The position numbers were made by a program, and so were the translations under genes. From the sequence record OX638288: DNA of 64,000 bases; one strand, given 5' to 3'. The DNA is from Escherichia phage UP19. Positions 9,178 to 63,321 of this stretch are shown here, piece after piece (position 1 is the stretch's first letter; each line of letters starts with the position of its first letter). The notes under the pieces were generated by a model. The model saw nothing but the letters and a program-made list of their open reading frames with translations. It made no database searches and had not been told where the DNA came from.

Positions 9178-9795
9178 ATGAAAACTTACAATGAATTTTT
9201 GAACGAAAGCGTTCTGAATGAAGCCGGCGTGCGCATGACTAAAGATATGTGGCAAGCTGCTTATGATAAAATTTCCGGGACTAAAACCACTACCGAGTTC
9301 TTTAAAAACGTTTATGATATGTATGGTTTTGATACTAGTAGCCAGAAAGAATATTACAAAGCTTCCAAAGCTTTTAAAGATATCGTAGCCGGTGGCTCTA
9401 CTAAGCCTGCTAAACCAGCTAAAGCTCCTGTTTCTAAACCCGCGGCTCAGACCAAAGTTGCAGCACCGAAACCTACACCTAAAGCAGAGCCTGTAAAAGA
9501 AGCTCCTAAACCTAAAATCAAGTTCGACACCAGCACTATTGTTAAAAAATATAACCAGCTGGCTTCTTTAGTGTCGGAAATCGAATCCGAAACTAAACAA
9601 CTTGTTCGAGAATTCAATGTTCTTCGTAATGGTCAACACATTAACAACCTAGATACCCCGGACCTCTATCGTCTTTACCTGACGGTTGAAGGCCTTAAGT
9701 ATACCCAGCCTATGCACGAAGAAATTGATAACAAACTTCGTCAAGCCCGCCGCCTTGCAGGTGACGCCGCTCAGTTCGAAAAGACCCGTAAATAA
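9178..9795 (+). CDS. internal-protein-like protein (CTS MKTYNEFLNE) with basic Ala/Pro/Lys-rich linker
   Basis: 205 aa; N-terminus MKTYNEFLNES; KPAKPAKAPVSKPAAQTKVAAPKPTPKAEPVKEAPKPK low-complexity segment; late promoter upstream. Confidence 0.65.
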   Translation: MKTYNEFLNESVLNEAGVRMTKDMWQAAYDKISGTKTTTEFFKNVYDMYGFDTSSQKEYYKASKAFKDIVAGGSTKPAKPAKAPVSKPAAQTKVAAPKPTPKAEPVKEAPKPKIKFDTSTIVKKYNQLASLVSEIESETKQLVREFNVLRNGQHINNLDTPDLYRLYLTVEGLKYTQPMHEEIDNKLRQARRLAGDAAQFEKTRK

Positions 9796-16447: not shown

Positions 16448-16680
16448 GTATTGCGATTTATATTAAATCCGAGTCATGCGATTCTTATCTGTATTCCTAT
16501 GACACCGGAACATCAGAAGAGAAAATCAAAGAAGATTTAGAAACCGACTTGGATATGTTCCGTCCTATTTCTGACTATATGGTCCAAGTGTCTGATAGTG
16601 AAAGCCCGTCATTAGAAAATAGACTTGAATTTTTAATGAGCGATATTTTTAACCAATCATGGAAACGTGATGATGAGTAA
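16444..16680 (+). CDS. hypothetical acidic protein
   Basis: 78 aa ORF overlapping neighbours by 4 and 14 nt. Confidence 0.5.
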   Translation: MSIAIYIKSESCDSYLYSYDTGTSEEKIKEDLETDLDMFRPISDYMVQVSDSESPSLENRLEFLMSDIFNQSWKRDDE

Positions 16681-17122
16681 GAAAGTTAAAGAACTATCAG
16701 CCGGTATTTTGTTCATGACTGTCGATAAAGAATTGGTTATGGGTCGTGTAACAGGTTCTCGTAATCCAGAGAATATGCGTCATAAATGGGACATTCCTAA
16801 AGGCCATGTCGAACCAGGTGAAGAGCCTATTCAAGCTGCTATGCGTGAAACCGAAGAAGAGATTGGATTCACTGCATATGACCCTGCGTTCCTGAAAGAC
16901 CTAGGTGAGTTCAAATATTCTAGCAATAAGAATCTACATCTGTTCTTATATACTGTGCCTGTCGAACACGAGCAGTTCAAGGATTGCAAATGTACCGCTT
17001 ATCATACGTTCCCTGACGGCCGTACGATTCCTGAATTCGATGCCTTTGCCTTGATTAAACGTCCGCAATGGGAATATGTCATGGGCCCGTCGATGTTTAA
17101 GGTTTTAGATTCGCTCTTTTGA
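16667..17122 (+). CDS. nudE: Nudix hydrolase (NudE-like, T4 e.1)
   Basis: Nudix box GHVEPGEEPIQAAMRETEEEIGF; immediately upstream of lysozyme as in T4. Confidence 0.85.
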   Translation: MMMSKKVKELSAGILFMTVDKELVMGRVTGSRNPENMRHKWDIPKGHVEPGEEPIQAAMRETEEEIGFTAYDPAFLKDLGEFKYSSNKNLHLFLYTVPVEHEQFKDCKCTAYHTFPDGRTIPEFDAFALIKRPQWEYVMGPSMFKVLDSLF

Positions 17123-17130
17123 TATAAATA
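17123..17130 (+). promoter_or_regulatory. late promoter TATAAATA for lysozyme, with SD-sequestering hairpin downstream
   Basis: TATAAATA followed by cctcct-ataatc-aggagg; 3' arm is the SD of gene e. Confidence 0.65.
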
Positions 17131-17152
17131 CCTCCTATAATCAGGAGGTATT

Positions 17153-17647
17153 ATGGATATTTTTGATATGTTACGTCAAGACGAAGGTCTTGATTTAAAT
17201 CTTTATAAAGACACTGAAGGTTATTGGACTATTGGTATTGGCCAGTTAGTTACCAAGAACCCATCTAAAGATGTTGCTCGTGCCGAACTTGACAAACTTA
17301 TGGGTCGGGTTTGCAATGGACGTATTACTATGGCTGAAGCTGAACAACTCTTTAACCGTTCAGTGGAAAATGCTCGTAGAGCTATAATGCGTAATCCTAA
17401 ATTGAAACCGGTTTATGATGTGCTGGACGAAGTTCGTCGTTGCGCGCTGATTAATATGGTCTTTCAAATGGGTGAAGCTGGTGTCGCTGGATTTACCAAC
17501 TCTCTGCGTATGCTCCAGCAGAAACGTTGGGATGATGCCGCAGTTAACCTGGTGCAGTCCCGTTGGTATAAGCAGACTCCGAATCGCGCTAAGCGAGTTA
17601 TCTCTACATTTAAAACAGGAACTTGGAAAGCATATGAAAACCTATAA
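17153..17647 (+). CDS. e: endolysin, T4 lysozyme family
   Basis: 164 aa [13 protein letters not shown]...[13 protein letters not shown]...; Glu11/Asp20 context conserved; clear T4 lysozyme homolog. Confidence 0.95.
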
Positions 17648-17903
17648 AGAATTTTTGGCCGAATCTCAACTGAACGAAAACACTGACCTAGACCGTATGA
17701 CATTCCTGGCTAAGAAAGGCGGCTTCGAATTTAAAGCCATTAAGAAAGTAAATGGGTATTCTTTTGAAGTCGGTGAATATACCTTTGGTAACAAGGGTGA
17801 TGGCCAGTGGCAAATTGTTAAAAACGGCAAAGAAGTAGACTACCTTTTCGGTAAGAAACTTAGTGACATTGCTAAAATAATGGGCGAATATTCTAAAAAA
17901 TAG
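17634..17903 (+). CDS. internal-protein-like protein ([13 protein letters not shown])
   Basis: ATG 17634 overlapping end of e; N-terminus [12 protein letters not shown]; position like T4 ipIII/ipII. Confidence 0.65.
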
Positions 17904-17943
17904 TTTACATCTCCTGTATGCATGATATTATAGACCTATCAAT
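17903..17943 (+). promoter_or_regulatory. early promoter / stem-loop cassette (PeSL-like)
   Basis: gtttacatctcctgtatgcatgatattatagacctatcaattacaggaga; arms tctcctgta / tacaggaga. Confidence 0.65.
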
Positions 17944-17959
17944 TACAGGAGATTACAAA

Positions 17960-18376
17960 ATGACTCGTATCAACCTTACCTTAGTATCTGAATTGGCTGA
18001 CCAACACTTAATGGCTGAATACCGTGAATTACCACGTGTTTTCGGTGCAGTTCGTAAGCATGTTGCTAACGGTAAACGTGTTCGTGATTTTAAAATCAGC
18101 CCTACTTTTATCCTTGGTACAGGCCATGTTACATTCTTTTATGATAAGCTTGAATTTTTACGTAAGCGACAAATTGAGCTTATAGCCGAATGTTTAAAAC
18201 GTGGATTCAATATCAAGGATACTACTGTCCAAGACATTTCCGATATTCCACAGGAATTCCGTGGTGATTATATTCCTCACGAAGCTTCTATCGCTATTTC
18301 ACAAGCCCGTTTGGATGAAAAAATTGCACAGCGTCCTACCTGGTACAAATATTATGGTAAGGCTATTTACGCTTAA
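17960..18376 (+). CDS. denV: endonuclease V, pyrimidine dimer glycosylase/AP lyase
   Basis: 138 aa [34 protein letters not shown]...; essentially identical to remembered T4 endonuclease V. Confidence 0.95.
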
Positions 18377-18418
18377 TTAAATCCGTGATAGAATACTTCT
18401 ATCAACTTAAGGAATAAT

Positions 18419-18718
18419 ATGAAAACTTATCAAGAATTTATTACAGAAGCCAAAGCTCCTAAAGCATTCCAAATAGGTGTCCAAGGCACCTTAGACCAAG
18501 AATATGTTGATGCTATTGTAGCAAGCCTCGGTAAACAGGGCGTACAAGTGGATTTGGTTGATTTTACTAAAGGTAATACTTTTAATATTGTTACATCTAA
18601 AGGCTCTTTAGCTAAAGTTAAAAAGGCCTTTGGTGTAGCCCAAGCATACGAAATCGACCACTCTGAATTAGAAAATAAAGGTCGCCAGAATACAATTAAA
18701 GGTTCTGGTTCTTTCTAA
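18419..18718 (+). CDS. internal-protein-like protein (CTS MKTYQEFITE)
   Basis: 99 aa; first 32 nt identical to ORF 5766. Confidence 0.65.
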   Translation: MKTYQEFITEAKAPKAFQIGVQGTLDQEYVDAIVASLGKQGVQVDLVDFTKGNTFNIVTSKGSLAKVKKAFGVAQAYEIDHSELENKGRQNTIKGSGSF

Positions 18719-18878
18719 TAAAGGCAAGCCGACCCTCTCCTCATGAACGTCGCATCCTCTGAGTGATGGACCTTTCCCTACCTGTAATAAGGTCGAGCCC
18801 AAGTGCGGTAAAGGGTTTACATACGGATACATGGATGAATTATGTGCCAAGGAACGGCCCCACAACTAAGAGACCACT

Positions 18879-19406
18879 ATGAAATTTTTAACTCCCATTT
18901 ATCTAACCTTAATGCACGCCTTCGCTGAACGCGCCATTGAACGTTTAGACTCAGACCAATATACCTGGTACGAACCCACTTCAAGAATGCAAGAGTTTGG
19001 TACTCTTCGACTTGACGGCGGGCGTCAAACAGGTAAAACAAGTGCCCTTGCCCAGTTCGCAGCTGATTGGGTTTCCAAGGGTAATGATGTGATTGTTATG
19101 TCAAGTTCTTCGCATCGCTCACGAGAAATCTGTAATATAATAAAAAGGGTTTCTAAGGCCCAACCACACCTTCAAGTAGAAGGTCCTGGGTTTGTTGTAT
19201 ATGATACCATGCGTTCATTTTTAGACGAAGATAACTTCCATAAGTATCGTGGTCTATCAGTTACTCGATTATTGATTATTATCGAAGAGCCAATGCGCCT
19301 TCCATCGATGGATAAGTTCTATGAAGCTTACCAGGTAATGATTAACAAATTTATGTGCCAGGGTTCTAAACCTCTGCCACTGTTCTTTGTGATAGGAATG
19401 CAATGA
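18879..19406 (+). CDS. P-loop NTPase-like protein
   Basis: 175 aa; Walker A-like GGRQTGKTSA. Confidence 0.55.
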   Translation: MKFLTPIYLTLMHAFAERAIERLDSDQYTWYEPTSRMQEFGTLRLDGGRQTGKTSALAQFAADWVSKGNDVIVMSSSSHRSREICNIIKRVSKAQPHLQVEGPGFVVYDTMRSFLDEDNFHKYRGLSVTRLLIIIEEPMRLPSMDKFYEAYQVMINKFMCQGSKPLPLFFVIGMQ

Positions 19407-19699
19407 TGACTGATGAAGAGCTTTTTGAGTTCTGCTATTTCTCACGTAAGGTTCGAAGAGAGGACCTTACTGCAAATTTCGAATATGCTTATTTCTATCC
19501 ATTAGAATATGTATTCATGACAGGGCCCTTTAAGGGCTCTCGTTTTAGATGTCATGCCCCAAGCATCCGATTAATGAAACAGGTTCCTTACTTCACTCTC
19601 GAGTTCATCTCAGGCCCGTGTAAGGGTATTATTACTCGCAGTCTCTTGACGTATGACCAAGAGATTCATATGATTTCTGACTGGAAAAAATATGTCTAA
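19403..19699 (+). CDS. hypothetical protein
   Basis: 98 aa; ATGA-coupled to upstream ORF. Confidence 0.5.
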   Translation: MMTDEELFEFCYFSRKVRREDLTANFEYAYFYPLEYVFMTGPFKGSRFRCHAPSIRLMKQVPYFTLEFISGPCKGIITRSLLTYDQEIHMISDWKKYV

Positions 19700-19910
19700 A
19701 TTGACAATTGAAGGCTCTGATGCAGTCCTGAAAAGATTTGTTGAATGGTTTAATGGGCCGGGTGAACAAGACTTTCTGGAAGTCTGGAACGGTGGCCAGT
19801 GGAATGGTAAAGAAATAGTTTACCCGACTACTTATATCTCTGTATGTGGTGGGATCGACGGCCTTCGTTTGGTAGAATATGATATTGCAACAGGTGAGGA
19901 AGTGAAATGA
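19692..19910 (+). CDS. hypothetical protein
   Basis: 72 aa; translationally coupled. Confidence 0.5.
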   Translation: MSKLTIEGSDAVLKRFVEWFNGPGEQDFLEVWNGGQWNGKEIVYPTTYISVCGGIDGLRLVEYDIATGEEVK

Positions 19911-20185
19911 TTGAAGATATCAAAGGTTACAAGCCACATACCGACGATAAAATCGGTAAAGTGAATGCCATTAAAGATGCTGAAGTCCGATTAGGCTTAA
20001 TCTTTAAAGCATTAGAAGAAGAATATGTTGAAGCCTTTACATGCTCAGGTGTTGATAAAATGAGTGATGAAGAATTCAACCTCACCCATGAACGCCTCGC
20101 CCAGATTCGTACGGCAATCGAACGCTTGAAAGAAGCTTCTATGTGGGCGTGTCGTTCCGTTTTCCAGCCCGAGGAAAAATACTAA
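19907..20185 (+). CDS. hypothetical protein
   Basis: 92 aa; translationally coupled. Confidence 0.5.
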   Translation: MIEDIKGYKPHTDDKIGKVNAIKDAEVRLGLIFKALEEEYVEAFTCSGVDKMSDEEFNLTHERLAQIRTAIERLKEASMWACRSVFQPEEKY

Positions 20186-20190
20186 AAGCA

Positions 20191-20240
20191 GTTTACATCT
20201 CCTGTAGACGTGGTACTATAGACCTATCAACTACAGGAGA
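20191..20240 (+). promoter_or_regulatory. early promoter / stem-loop cassette (PeSL-like)
   Basis: gtttacatctcctgtagacgtggtactatagacctatcaactacaggaga; perfect 10-bp arms tctcctgtag / ctacaggaga. Confidence 0.65.
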
Positions 20241-20247
20241 TTACAAA

Positions 20248-20706
20248 ATGTCAGAAATTAATTCAGAAGTATTCATCCGCCGCAACAAATTACGTCGACA
20301 GTTCGAAACCGAATTTCGTGAACTTAACGCGTCCATCAAAAAAGCCGCCATTAAGAGTGGTGTCCCAGCTTTCTTTATTAAGTACTCTAATCACTTGTTG
20401 GACCGTGCTATCCAACGTGAAATTGACGAAAAATATGTTTTCTCTTTGTTCAAGAAGCTCCACAATCATGTTAAAGAAATCCATGAATTTTTAATCCAGG
20501 AGCCTCTTCCTGACGTAGAATCTGAAATTGTCCCGGGTAAAGTGTATCGACCACTGCGTCTCGAGATTACCGATAAAACCTTATGGTTAGGTATGACCGT
20601 AGATCGTAAACATCCTGATAAAGGATATTCATTAAAATGCCGTATGGCATTTGTTAACTCTAAACGTTTAGAAGGTAAAACCAGCACTAAAGTAATCTAT
20701 CTTTAA
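20248..20706 (+). CDS. regB: RegB site-specific endoribonuclease
   Basis: 152 aa MSEINSEVFIRRNKLRRQFETEFR...HLLDRAIQREIDE...; like T4 RegB. Confidence 0.9.
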   Translation: MSEINSEVFIRRNKLRRQFETEFRELNASIKKAAIKSGVPAFFIKYSNHLLDRAIQREIDEKYVFSLFKKLHNHVKEIHEFLIQEPLPDVESEIVPGKVYRPLRLEITDKTLWLGMTVDRKHPDKGYSLKCRMAFVNSKRLEGKTSTKVIYL

Positions 20707-21258: not shown

Positions 21259-21615
21259 ATGATTAAACAGATGACTATAGCGCTTATGTTTATTGCTCCG
21301 GGAGTATTAGCATCACAGGTTGATGATACAAATAATTCAATTGTCGAGTATGCCACCCGTACAGCAAAAGATTATTGTCATCCGAGTAATACTGAATGTG
21401 TTATTGAATTCAGTTCAAAAATAACAGCTGCTTTTAAAGATGGACAGAACGACGTCGAGCATCGCCGAATGAAAGAGAAAACTCTTTCTAAAAGATACGA
21501 GCAACGTCTAAACGTTACTGAATGTGTTCCATCTGATAAAAAGTACAAAGAAATGTGCGCGTCTATGGTAGACAGACTCGTTGACTCTTACAACCGAGGG
21601 CTAAACTCTAAATGA
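21259..21615 (+). CDS. secreted/periplasmic hypothetical protein
   Basis: 118 aa; N-terminal signal peptide. Confidence 0.5.
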   Translation: MIKQMTIALMFIAPGVLASQVDDTNNSIVEYATRTAKDYCHPSNTECVIEFSSKITAAFKDGQNDVEHRRMKEKTLSKRYEQRLNVTECVPSDKKYKEMCASMVDRLVDSYNRGLNSK

Positions 21616-22079
21616 TTATTGATTATATTAAGGGCGATATCGTCGCCCTGTTTCTTCAAGGCAATAATGTTGCACACGGGTGTAACTGCTTTCACACAAT
21701 GGGTTCAGGTGTAGCAGGTCAATTGGCTAAGGCGTATCCACCTATTCTTGCTATCGATAAAACCACTTATTTAGGTGATATAGCAAAACTTGGAACATAT
21801 ACCCAAGCCACAGGTAATAATGGACAAATTTGCTATAATTTATACACCCAATACGAACCAGGCCCTAATCTTGATTACGGTGCTTTAGTAAACTGTATGA
21901 TAGAATTAAACCATACTTCAAAAGGTCTTTTGTTTAAACCGAGAATTTATATTCCTCGCATTGGCTGTGGTATTGCTGGTGGTGATTGGGACAAGGTTTA
22001 TCAATTGATTAATTTGTTTACTCCTGATATTAATTTAGTGGTGGTAGATTATGAAAGCTCATTATCCGCATCCGTTTGA
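21612..22079 (+). CDS. macro-domain protein (ADP-ribose binding/processing), tentative
   Basis: 155 aa; KGDIV...VAHGCNCFHTMGSGVAGQLA...IPRIGCGIAGG parallels the GDIT...NAAN...GGGVA...SAGIYG macro-domain layout. Confidence 0.55.
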   Translation: MIIDYIKGDIVALFLQGNNVAHGCNCFHTMGSGVAGQLAKAYPPILAIDKTTYLGDIAKLGTYTQATGNNGQICYNLYTQYEPGPNLDYGALVNCMIELNHTSKGLLFKPRIYIPRIGCGIAGGDWDKVYQLINLFTPDINLVVVDYESSLSASV

Positions 22080-63087: not shown

Positions 63088-63321
63088 ATGGGTGGTTTCG
63101 TTAATATCAAAACCTTTACGCATCCAGCTGGTGAAGGTAAAGAAGTTAAAGGTACTGAGGTTTCAGTTCCGTTTGAAATCTATTCAAATGAGCATCGTAT
63201 TGCCAATGCTCATTATCAGACTTTCCCTTCGGCCGTTGCAGCCTATACTACTGTAGTGACTGATGCAGCCGATTGGCGAACTAAGAACGCGGCGATGTTT
63301 ACGCCAACTGATATTGTTTAA
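63088..63321 (+). CDS. soc: small outer capsid protein Soc
   Basis: 77 aa ...FVNIKTF...EVSVPFEIYSNEHRIANAHYQTFPS... like T4 Soc; late promoter upstream. Confidence 0.85.
   Translation: MGGFVNIKTFTHPAGEGKEVKGTEVSVPFEIYSNEHRIANAHYQTFPSAVAAYTTVVTDAADWRTKNAAMFTPTDIV

Follow-up and report, generated by a model that had tools for sequence, protein, structure and literature searches.

A denV allele shared by Escherichia phage UP19 and phage T4 points to a probable mosaic locus in T4

Endonuclease V of phage T4, the product of denV, is among the most studied DNA-repair enzymes. Thr2 is its nucleophile once Met has been removed, and Glu23 is also a functional residue. According to a classical report, T2 and T6 lack the v function of T4, and T4 differs from T2 and T6 in ultraviolet (UV) sensitivity. 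Here, the denV gene was analysed in a stretch of 64,000 nucleotides (nt) from Escherichia phage UP19 (OX638288), which is called the window below. The window and T4 share an almost identical DenV protein in a region where their other genes are strongly diverged. Comparison with related phages suggests that T4 is quite probably the mosaic genome at this locus and carries a Dhakavirus-type allele, and that the denV of the window is the resident allele of its genus.

Several described systems resemble parts of the locus. Repoila et al. (1994, EMBO J) reportedly found that T-even phages differ in their internal-protein (ip) gene cluster and that ip genes are swapped at their conserved 5′ ends. For T4 e, soc and I-TevI, hairpins that sequester the ribosome-binding site are said by McPheeters et al. 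in 1986 and Gott et al. in 1988 to limit translation to transcripts from internal promoters. The 40-75 kb segment of the T4 map has long been known to be hypervariable, and intronless homing and marker exclusion were documented in T-even crosses (PMC2993671). In hyperplastic regions of T4-like phages, promoter-early stem-loop (PeSL) cassettes, with the T4/PST-type consensus TTTACW-N17-TAYWAT and a stem-loop, serve as recombination linkers, a role that was proposed by the authors and, for RB49/phi1, shown by the detection of mini-circles (PMC2839356, PMC4122927).

The denV gene of the window and its T4 counterpart

The open reading frame (ORF) list started the denV frame at 17918, and alignment with the T4 and Protein Data Bank (PDB) sequences set the true start at 17960. 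Residues 1-138 of the product were collinear with residues 1-138 of T4 endonuclease V (PDB 2END), and 137 of the 138 were identical over the full length, including MTRIN... and ...YRELPR.... A sequence-only reading of this DNA had expected a match at all but one or two positions, and the T4 protein sequence that it relied on proved accurate. The sole difference is residue 54, which is Thr in the window and Ala in T4; across the alleles compared, Ala was present in T4 only, and Thr or Ser elsewhere. Thr2 and the region of Arg22, Glu23 and Arg26 are the same as in T4 endonuclease V (PDB 2END, 1VAS). The PF03013 (Pyr_excise) profile matched the window protein with 54.6 bits (cut-off 23, E 1.4e-14). 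In all respects that can be tested on sequence, the window gene is thus T4 endonuclease V. At the DNA level it has 38 nt differences from the T4 gene, 37 of which are silent at the protein level. The context is different: denV lies between two ip genes in the window, and in T4 the order is ipIII-ipII-denV, followed directly by the leader of vs.8.

Nucleotide identity to T4 was not uniform along the region. It was estimated by blastn to be 90.3% over 17894-18376, compared with 69% in nudE-e (16682-17649), 69% in vs.1 and 67% in tk. In 60-nt sliding windows, identity stayed under 50% up to about 17870, reached 85-98% between 17891 and the stop codon and dropped to about 30% past 18376, a sharp rise confined to the promoter and denV, as the sequence-only reading implied. 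Counted from 17903, at the −35 box, through the end of the ORF, the denV DNA was 91% identical. Synonymous divergence (dS, Nei-Gojobori) between the window and T4 was computed for denV and 11 other genes, e.2 being not comparable. In the interval 15.8-23.2 kb, denV was the sole gene with at least 90% nt identity to T4 (91% nt, 99% amino acid (aa) identity, dS 0.55, ratio of nonsynonymous to synonymous divergence (dN/dS) 0.02). The 11 other genes showed 52-72% nt identity and a dS of at least 1.4 or saturated. For the lysozyme gene e, identity to T4 was 75% aa and 72% nt with a dS of 1.8, so that about a quarter of the positions differ, within the quarter to a third given by the sequence-only reading; for nudE, dS was saturated. 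Only 38 of the 417 nt of denV differ from T4, compared with 138 of 495 for e (Fisher p = 3e-13) and 170 of 450 for nudE (p = 4e-24). No protein match was found in the T4 locus for the two internal-protein-like genes beside denV, here ipA and ipB. These neighbours had been described as unrelated to T4, which holds apart from about 40 nt at their 5′ ends that match T4 ip genes at 86-88%.

These comparisons indicate that the common ancestor of the two denV genes is much younger than that of the rest of the region. The near-identity of the two proteins is due in large part to strong purifying selection on an old shared allele, since only 1 of the 38 nt differences changes a residue. The 38 mostly silent differences (9% of sites) and the dS of about 0.55 also argue that the exchange was not recent. 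Of the recent horizontal exchange that had been proposed, the exchange between lineages therefore stands and the recent date does not. Convergence was ruled out as the similarity extends to synonymous sites. Contamination or chimeric assembly was likewise ruled out, given that the allele is 9% off T4 and was found in about 45 independent Dhakavirus records.

The gene order in the window, all on the + strand, is nudE, e, ipA, denV, ipB, vs.8, vs.7, vs.5-like, vs.4, regB, vs.1, vs, tk.4 and tk. The features around denV are as follows.

16673-17122, + strand: nudE (Nudix hydrolase), flanking reference gene, 60% aa and 62% nt identity to T4
17153-17647, + strand: e (lysozyme, Pfam PF00959), flanking reference for vertical divergence
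17634-17903, + strand: ipA, internal-protein-like gene of 89 aa with N-terminus MKTYKEF..., directly 5′ of the denV cassette
17903-17959, + strand: early-promoter and hairpin cassette (PeSL-like), leader of denV, from promoter scan and RNA fold
17960-18376, + strand: denV, T4-type endonuclease V (pyrimidine-dimer DNA glycosylase/AP lyase) of 138 aa, from PF03013 and PDB 2END
18366-18418, + strand: second promoter-like cassette, leader of ipB, from promoter scan and a motif match at 18386-18405
18419-18718, + strand: ipB, Ip7-like internal-protein gene of 99 aa, directly 3′ of denV
18719-18878, + strand: conserved non-coding element separating the ip cluster from vs.8, from cross-genus alignment

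The mosaic genome and the direction of transfer

The closest relatives of the 20 kb around denV are members of Dhakavirus, the JS98/JS10/IME08 group of T4-like coliphages. The best matches of this 20-kb query had 91-96% identity at 87-95% coverage (MN04 95.8%, CLB_P2 95.1%, dhaeg 94.0%; IME08 was also among them). Because none of the records searched reached 99% across the region, the window represents a distinct Dhakavirus member. Its denV was 90-96% identical at the nt level to those of eight Dhakaviruses (JS98, IME08, EcWhh-1, CUA3, IME341, IME281, ESCO10 and VR5, the last a Dhakavirus according to its sequence record). The dS values to seven of them were 0.16-0.60 for denV, 0.29-0.39 for nudE and 0.38-0.64 for e; at the aa level, e was 98% and nudE 97-99% identical to other Dhakaviruses. 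As the dS of denV matches the range of its flanks, denV appears to be native in the window, and the direction implied by the sequence-only reading, with the window as recipient, was not borne out.

That the window phage recently gained a T4 denV cassette and is itself the mosaic is therefore very improbable. Such a gain would suit the position of denV as the sole gene with T4-like identity, and a shared segment bounded by a promoter cassette and a stop codon. It would also suit two sites at which the window DenV has Ile and Tyr, as T4 and VR5 do, where most Dhakaviruses have Val and His. However, the window denV is closer to other Dhakaviruses than to T4 (91%), in dS to Dhakaviruses it does not differ from the flanks, and a dS of 0.55 to T4 is too high for a recent event. 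Moreover, all Dhakavirus records listed have the allele, and among the listed Tequatroviruses only T4 and its twins do.

The T4 locus was compared with the Tequatroviruses UFV13, RB68 and KNP1. Maps of high-scoring segment pairs showed 92-95% identity in the flanks on both sides. In the per-gene comparison, nudE, e, vs.7, vs.3, regB, vs.1 and vs showed 93-99% nt identity with a dS of 0.04-0.3; T4 denV showed 72-80% with a dS of 1.2-1.5. In T4 locus coordinates (L001), the match of 92-95% extended up to 7902 and came back from 9414-9418, which is the denV stop. The segment 9418-9620 was 95-97% identical to UFV13, RB68 and KNP1, and 78% to VR5. Informative sites in the triplet T4/VR5/UFV13 were 77:16 in favour of VR5 inside denV and 46:2 in favour of UFV13 just downstream (Fisher p = 6e-21).

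The distribution of the allele was determined by megablast. Among the matches listed, at least 89% identity to T4 denV was shown by T4, T4T, RB55 and RB59 and by about 45 Dhakavirus or JS98-like records, and every Dhakavirus record listed holds the T4-type allele. The remaining matches, several hundred records that came mostly from Tequatroviruses and further T4-like phages, did not exceed 80% identity. At the T2 locus (AP018813 56000-72000) an Ip4-like gene replaces ipIII-ipII-denV, and at the T6 locus (AP018814 56000-72000) there is a deletion from just past e to just before regB. No DenV homologue was found in T2 or T6 within the 16 kb around the locus that were searched. Both negatives at the locus agree with the classical report on v function.

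Based on these results, T4 is quite probably the mosaic genome at denV, with a Dhakavirus-type allele, and the window denV would be the resident allele of its genus. The window DenV would then look T4-identical because the T4 lineage has a Dhakavirus-type cassette and purifying selection on DenV is very strong. An account without any transfer, in which DenV merely evolves slowly beside faster genes, was also considered. DenV is indeed 78-92% identical at the aa level across genera, compared with 33-78% for its neighbours, and its dN/dS is 0.02-0.08. Slow evolution alone is nevertheless scarcely credible, because denV has a dS of 0.55 between the window and T4 where the other genes are saturated, T4 denV is 72-80% identical at the nt level to its own genus where the flanks are 92-99%, and the T4 breakpoint is sharp (p = 6e-21). 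Furthermore, a clade of T4 and Dhakavirus alleles with 100% bootstrap contradicts the genome phylogeny.

This clade was obtained in a neighbour-joining tree of 15 denV alleles, in which T4 and all Dhakavirus alleles formed one group and T4 joined VR5 and ESCO10 inside it. The denV distances were 5.1% for T4-VR5, 10.7% for VR5-IME341 and 10% for window-VR5. Because the T4-VR5 distance is below many intra-Dhakavirus distances, T4 falls within the Dhakavirus denV diversity. The 67-nt promoter cassette matched at 9-13 places per Dhakavirus genome and at 1 place in RB59, the T4 twin which, with the 18-kb T4 locus, represented T4 in this count. The 14-mer TATAGACCTATCAA was found once in the 18-kb T4 locus (at denV) and 1-4 times per Dhakavirus locus, with 0 copies in the loci of T2, T6, UFV13, RB68, KNP1, HX01 and VR7. 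We infer that the allele probably passed from a Dhakavirus-like donor to a T4-lineage recipient.

Several observations weigh against this direction. The grouping of T4 with VR5 had only 57% bootstrap support, Dhakavirus alleles were monophyletic without T4 in 28% of replicates, and bootstrap trees from third codon positions only were too noisy to resolve the denV alleles. Recombination among the Dhakavirus denV alleles also blurs the tree signal. Enterobacter phage Entb_45 (ON630910) carries at 63111-63176 a singleton copy of the 67-nt cassette, 91% identical to that of the window. The Entb_45 denV is only 76% identical to that of T4, so its leader is kept better than the gene, and the promoter cassette may long have belonged to the denV unit instead of being a Dhakavirus signature. 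In addition, the T4 leader is a fine patchwork, with an IME08-like ipII end and Shine-Dalgarno (SD) spacer and a VR5/JS98-like hairpin, and more than one exchange event is needed to account for it. The donor may also have been an unsampled third phage.

These observations bear on an opposite history, in which the T4 lineage or an unsampled third phage gave the allele to the Dhakavirus ancestor and T4 keeps the original. The moderate bootstrap for T4 nested in Dhakavirus alleles and the Entb_45 cassette before a divergent denV, which is thus not Dhakavirus-exclusive, both speak for it. Exchange is also two-way here, as VR5 has a T4-like 3′ end of e and a T4-like ipIII, up to 100%. On the other hand, the T4-VR5 distance of 5.1% is well under the intra-Dhakavirus distances of up to 10.7%, the nearest kin of T4 have no denV at the locus (T2, T6) or have other alleles, T4 has one copy of the promoter motif and Dhakaviruses have several, and Ala54 of T4 is derived. 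This opposite history is therefore unlikely, though it is not negligible. A scan of IMG/VR with DenV returned only known isolates for the T4/Dhakavirus-type allele, and no metagenomic intermediate or closer donor.

The promoter/hairpin cassette and the borders of the exchanged segment

At the left edge, all ten aligned phages were unrelated upstream of GTTTAC and had the promoter in common from there on; the similarity of T4, VR5 and JS98 to the window begins exactly at GTTTAC. The right edge is the ORF end, and the last ~25 nt of denV (TGGTAYAARTAYTAYGGNAA...) were conserved in every allele. The cassette had been predicted to lie between promoter sequences at 17903 and the region upstream of 18419. 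The left bound is indeed the promoter cassette at 17903, and the right bound is the end of the ORF, just 5′ of the promoter-like region before 18419. A second, promoter-like site begins within the last denV codons (ATT TAC GCT TAA), with a −35 TTTACG (18366-18371) and a −10 TAGAAT (18389-18394) that is overlapped by a 7-bp inverted repeat, GATAGAA (18387-18393) / TTCTATC (18397-18403). The sequence of this second promoter-like cassette is common to JS98, IME08 and ESCO10 and absent from T4 and VR5. In T4 and VR5, denV ends with ATT TAT GCA TAA, there is no ip gene downstream, and the conserved element preceding vs.8 directly follows the denV stop; in T4, the Tequatrovirus-type sequence resumes there. 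The ip genes on either side of denV differ among Dhakaviruses.

The promoter scan identified a −35 TTTACA (17904-17909) and an extended −10 TG-n-TATTAT (17926-17931) with a 16-nt spacer (10/12 match) in the denV leader. An AT-rich stretch with the stop codon of the upstream gene, AAAAAATAG, abuts the promoter. A 10-bp stem is predicted in which ATCTCCTGTA (17909-17918) pairs with TACAGGAGAT (17944-17953), and the TACAGGAGAT arm contains the Shine-Dalgarno sequence AGGAG (17947-17951). The leader RNA folded with −15.9 kcal/mol (z −3.56; z was about −3.5 in T4 also), and the same stem is present in the T4 leader and in the regB copy of the window. The arms vary among leaders yet stay complementary (ATCTCCTGTA/TACAGGAGAT, TTCCTCCAAG/CTTGGAGGAA, AACTCCGTTTG/CAAACGGAG, TTCTCCTGTAGATG/CATCTACAGGAGAA). 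In 42 distinct T4-like denV leaders, the variants beside the CTCC/GGAG core included TGTA/TACA, CAAG/CTTG, GTTTG/CAAAC and TGTAGATG/CATCTACA, and an alternative design places the 5′ arm right behind the −10. In 39 of 41 scored leaders, the SD was predicted to be paired in read-through RNA and more open in RNA from its own promoter, with median probabilities of being unpaired of 0.0008 and 0.43, respectively, values that depend on estimated +1 sites and on some −10 assignments that were visibly wrong, which counts against the role proposed for the hairpin. With RNAalifold on a MAFFT alignment of the leaders, the stem was reduced to its 5-bp SD core, as indels misalign the outer arms; the evidence for the hairpin thus comes from per-sequence folding and direct reading of the arms.

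Related cassettes of 53-67 nt occur four times in 13-26 kb of the window. One lies before denV; the others lead regB (20178-20250, 88% identical), a gene at 24.3 kb and an ORF near 14.9 kb. Against an expectation of 0.62, the window has 15 copies of the extended −10/start-site motif TGRTANNATNNNNNTATCAA (mostly TGATACTATAGACCTATCAA), all but one on the + strand, at sites that include 5720, 6289, 9875, 14901, 17923, 18386, 20211, 24334, 29156, 58817 and 59837. The motif marks a family of near-identical early-promoter cassettes.

The window cassette was compared with PeSLs. It is intergenic: it starts at the stop codon of the preceding gene, in an AT-rich stretch, and reaches the ATG of the next one. 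Its −35 is TTTACA and its −10, which the stem-loop overlaps, is TATTAT; the SD lies at its 3′ end. It is repeated on one strand in a hyperplastic region and sits where related genomes diverge. Judged by its sequence, the cassette has all the features by which PeSLs are recognized. There are also differences: the spacer is 16 nt and that of the consensus is 17, the stem is AT-rich without the GGGG...CCCC of the RB49 type, the right junction is a conserved ORF 3′ end with no complete second PeSL in T4, and the 3′ arm is the Shine-Dalgarno sequence itself. An SD-containing arm suggests translational insulation instead of, or besides, the termination proposed for PeSLs. In this respect the cassette resembles the hairpins of T4 e, soc and I-TevI, since transcription is predicted to start downstream of its 5′ arm and its 3′ arm covers the SD, so that the short transcript alone is predicted to be translatable. 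The classical internal promoters are late, whereas that of the window is a predicted early, sigma-70-type promoter.

Recurrent exchange in the e-vs.8 region and its meaning

A further pair of phages was informative about the denV borders. UFV13 (Tequatrovirus) and HX01 (Mosigvirus) were about 75% identical in e and 76% downstream. Between these segments (UFV13, L003 5535-6414) they reached 97-100% identity in a stretch that opens in the 3′ end of e, spans an ip gene and covers the first 150 nt of denV; the rest of denV was 91-97% identical (96.4% over denV), and the identity collapsed at the denV stop. This pattern identifies a second, independent inter-genus exchange that takes in denV. T4 (L001 7609-8507) and VR5 were 83-88% identical in the 3′ third of e and 91-100% in ipIII, with L001 8308-8507 being 100% identical; the shared stretch is broken before denV by unrelated ip genes (ipII in T4 and ip7 in VR5). 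The e/ipIII sharing points to further, more recent exchanges in the same block. Given the UFV13/HX01 and T4/VR5 patterns, the denV 3′ end appears to be a recurrent boundary, and e-ip-denV-vs.8 an inter-genus exchange hot spot, consistent with the hypervariable 40-75 kb segment of the T4 map (PMC2993671).

The exchanged unit would be about 475 bp (17903-18376) and comprise one early promoter, a hairpin, a ribosome-binding site and the ORF. The likeliest route would be homologous recombination between phages that infect the same E. coli cell. Left crossovers could fall in the repeated early-promoter/hairpin cassette and the conserved 5′ ends of ip genes, and right crossovers in the final ~25 nt of denV, which are conserved, and in the element upstream of vs.8. 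With such short patches of homology on either side, the recombination system of the phage would be able to exchange a single gene precisely. By pairing the promoter spacer with the SD, the hairpin would keep read-through RNA untranslated; RNA from the gene's own promoter, without the 5′ arm, would be translated, making the gene a self-contained, portable expression unit. We hypothesize that the promoter, hairpin and ORF travel together because of this translational independence from the upstream context. The exchange unit and the repeats fit the published PeSL modular-shuffling model.

A homing endonuclease could also have been involved, with a break near denV repaired from a co-infecting phage and the gene co-converted. 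Intronless homing and marker exclusion are known in T-even crosses (PMC2993671), segB lies about 6 kb upstream of denV in T4, and a putative endonuclease gene of VR5 adjoins tk, about 4 kb downstream. No endonuclease gene is annotated adjacent to denV in the T4, JS98, IME08 and VR5 records, a check made on record annotations with 5 window ORFs profiled, and action in trans is possible. Homing is nonetheless improbable, because the tract is a precise single-gene unit and co-conversion tracts usually taper from the cleavage site. Moreover, the UFV13/HX01 exchange stops at the same 3′ boundary, and a second exchange with the same 3′ end points to a sequence-determined junction.

The genes around denV were also compared. 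For ipA, no match was found in any of the 9 Dhakavirus loci compared, and tblastn against the phage collection gave nothing above 80% aa identity. The ipA matches listed (25 records, 64-77% aa) were in Klebsiella, Pectobacterium, Kosakonia, Edwardsiella, Enterobacter and Serratia phages and also included the E. coli phages UPEC07, TH55 and DK-13, with no named Dhakaviruses. By these comparisons, the swap particular to the window phage is ipA, not denV. The ipB product was 99-100% identical at the aa level to those of JS98, IME08 and EcWhh-1, and 95% to Ip7 of VR7; the first ~40 nt of ipB were 88% identical to the T4 ipII/ipIII starts, and T4 has no gene at the ipB position. As in the polymorphic ip cluster of T-even phages, denV lies within the ip cluster, the ip genes vary among close relatives with the first ~40 nt kept, and the similarity between T4 and T2 ends 30 nt into ipIII. 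The difference is that denV encodes a repair enzyme with its own promoter and hairpin, and not an injected internal protein.

Downstream, two strongly differing alleles of vs.8 (18879-19406) occur, and their distribution does not follow the genera. The vs.8 of the window was 97% identical at the aa level to EcWhh-1 and CUA3, 94-95% to VR7 (Gaprivervirus) and VR5, and 37-39% to JS98, IME08, ESCO10 and T4; the ESCO10 vs.8 is T4-like (88% nt). The vs.5-like ORF (19692-19910) was 92% identical (aa) to VR7 (Gaprivervirus) and 74-78% to most Dhakaviruses, and tk.4 (21612-22079) was 94% identical to IME08 and EcWhh-1, 76% to JS98 and 67% to CUA3. Judging from these identities, the vs.5-like and tk.4 patterns are more small allele swaps in the region.

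The GC-rich element of about 150 nt before vs.8 (18719-18878; T4 L001 9418-9563) is conserved in Tequatro-, Mosig-, Dhaka- and Gapriverviruses, and its ~40-nt core (ACCTGTAATAAGGTCGAGCCCAAGTGCGGTAA) is nearly invariant in the four genera, far beyond the surrounding genes. The segment 18716-18882 folded no better than shuffles (z −0.45), and RNAalifold showed almost no covariation. The element was therefore not called an RNA. At E ≤ 1, Rfam gave only two chance-level matches over 17000-20500 (Intron_gpII, 23.9 bits, and Mu-gpT-DE), and ARAGORN found no tRNA.

Regional mosaicism and cassette shuffling in T4-like phages are already established, and the conceptual gain is small. In the accessible literature, with the JS98 genome paper outside its scope, no description was found of T4 denV as a discordant Dhakavirus-type allele, of denV breakpoints at the −35 box and the stop codon, or of the lack of denV at the T2 and T6 loci. 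The locus offers a clean, bounded case of inter-genus single-gene exchange, with breakpoints at the −35 box and the stop codon and with covariation that supports a hairpin predicted to insulate translation, which makes it useful for testing the PeSL shuffling model.

We lean, with some reserve, towards the view that T4 denV, together with its promoter and hairpin, is a xenolog from a JS98-like pool that entered a T-even ancestor without denV, and that denV is a recurrently mobile cassette. At least two independent inter-genus denV exchanges (T4/Dhakavirus and UFV13-type Tequatrovirus/Mosigvirus) would then share the same 3′ boundary. In that case, denV would be a self-insulated single-gene cassette in Tevenvirinae, whose portability hinges on a covarying hairpin that silences read-through translation. 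The classical contrast in UV sensitivity that separates T4 from T2 and T6 would then stem from the presence or absence of denV. As T4 is the reference genome of the subfamily, treating it as the Tequatrovirus state at this locus would be misleading if its denV was imported.

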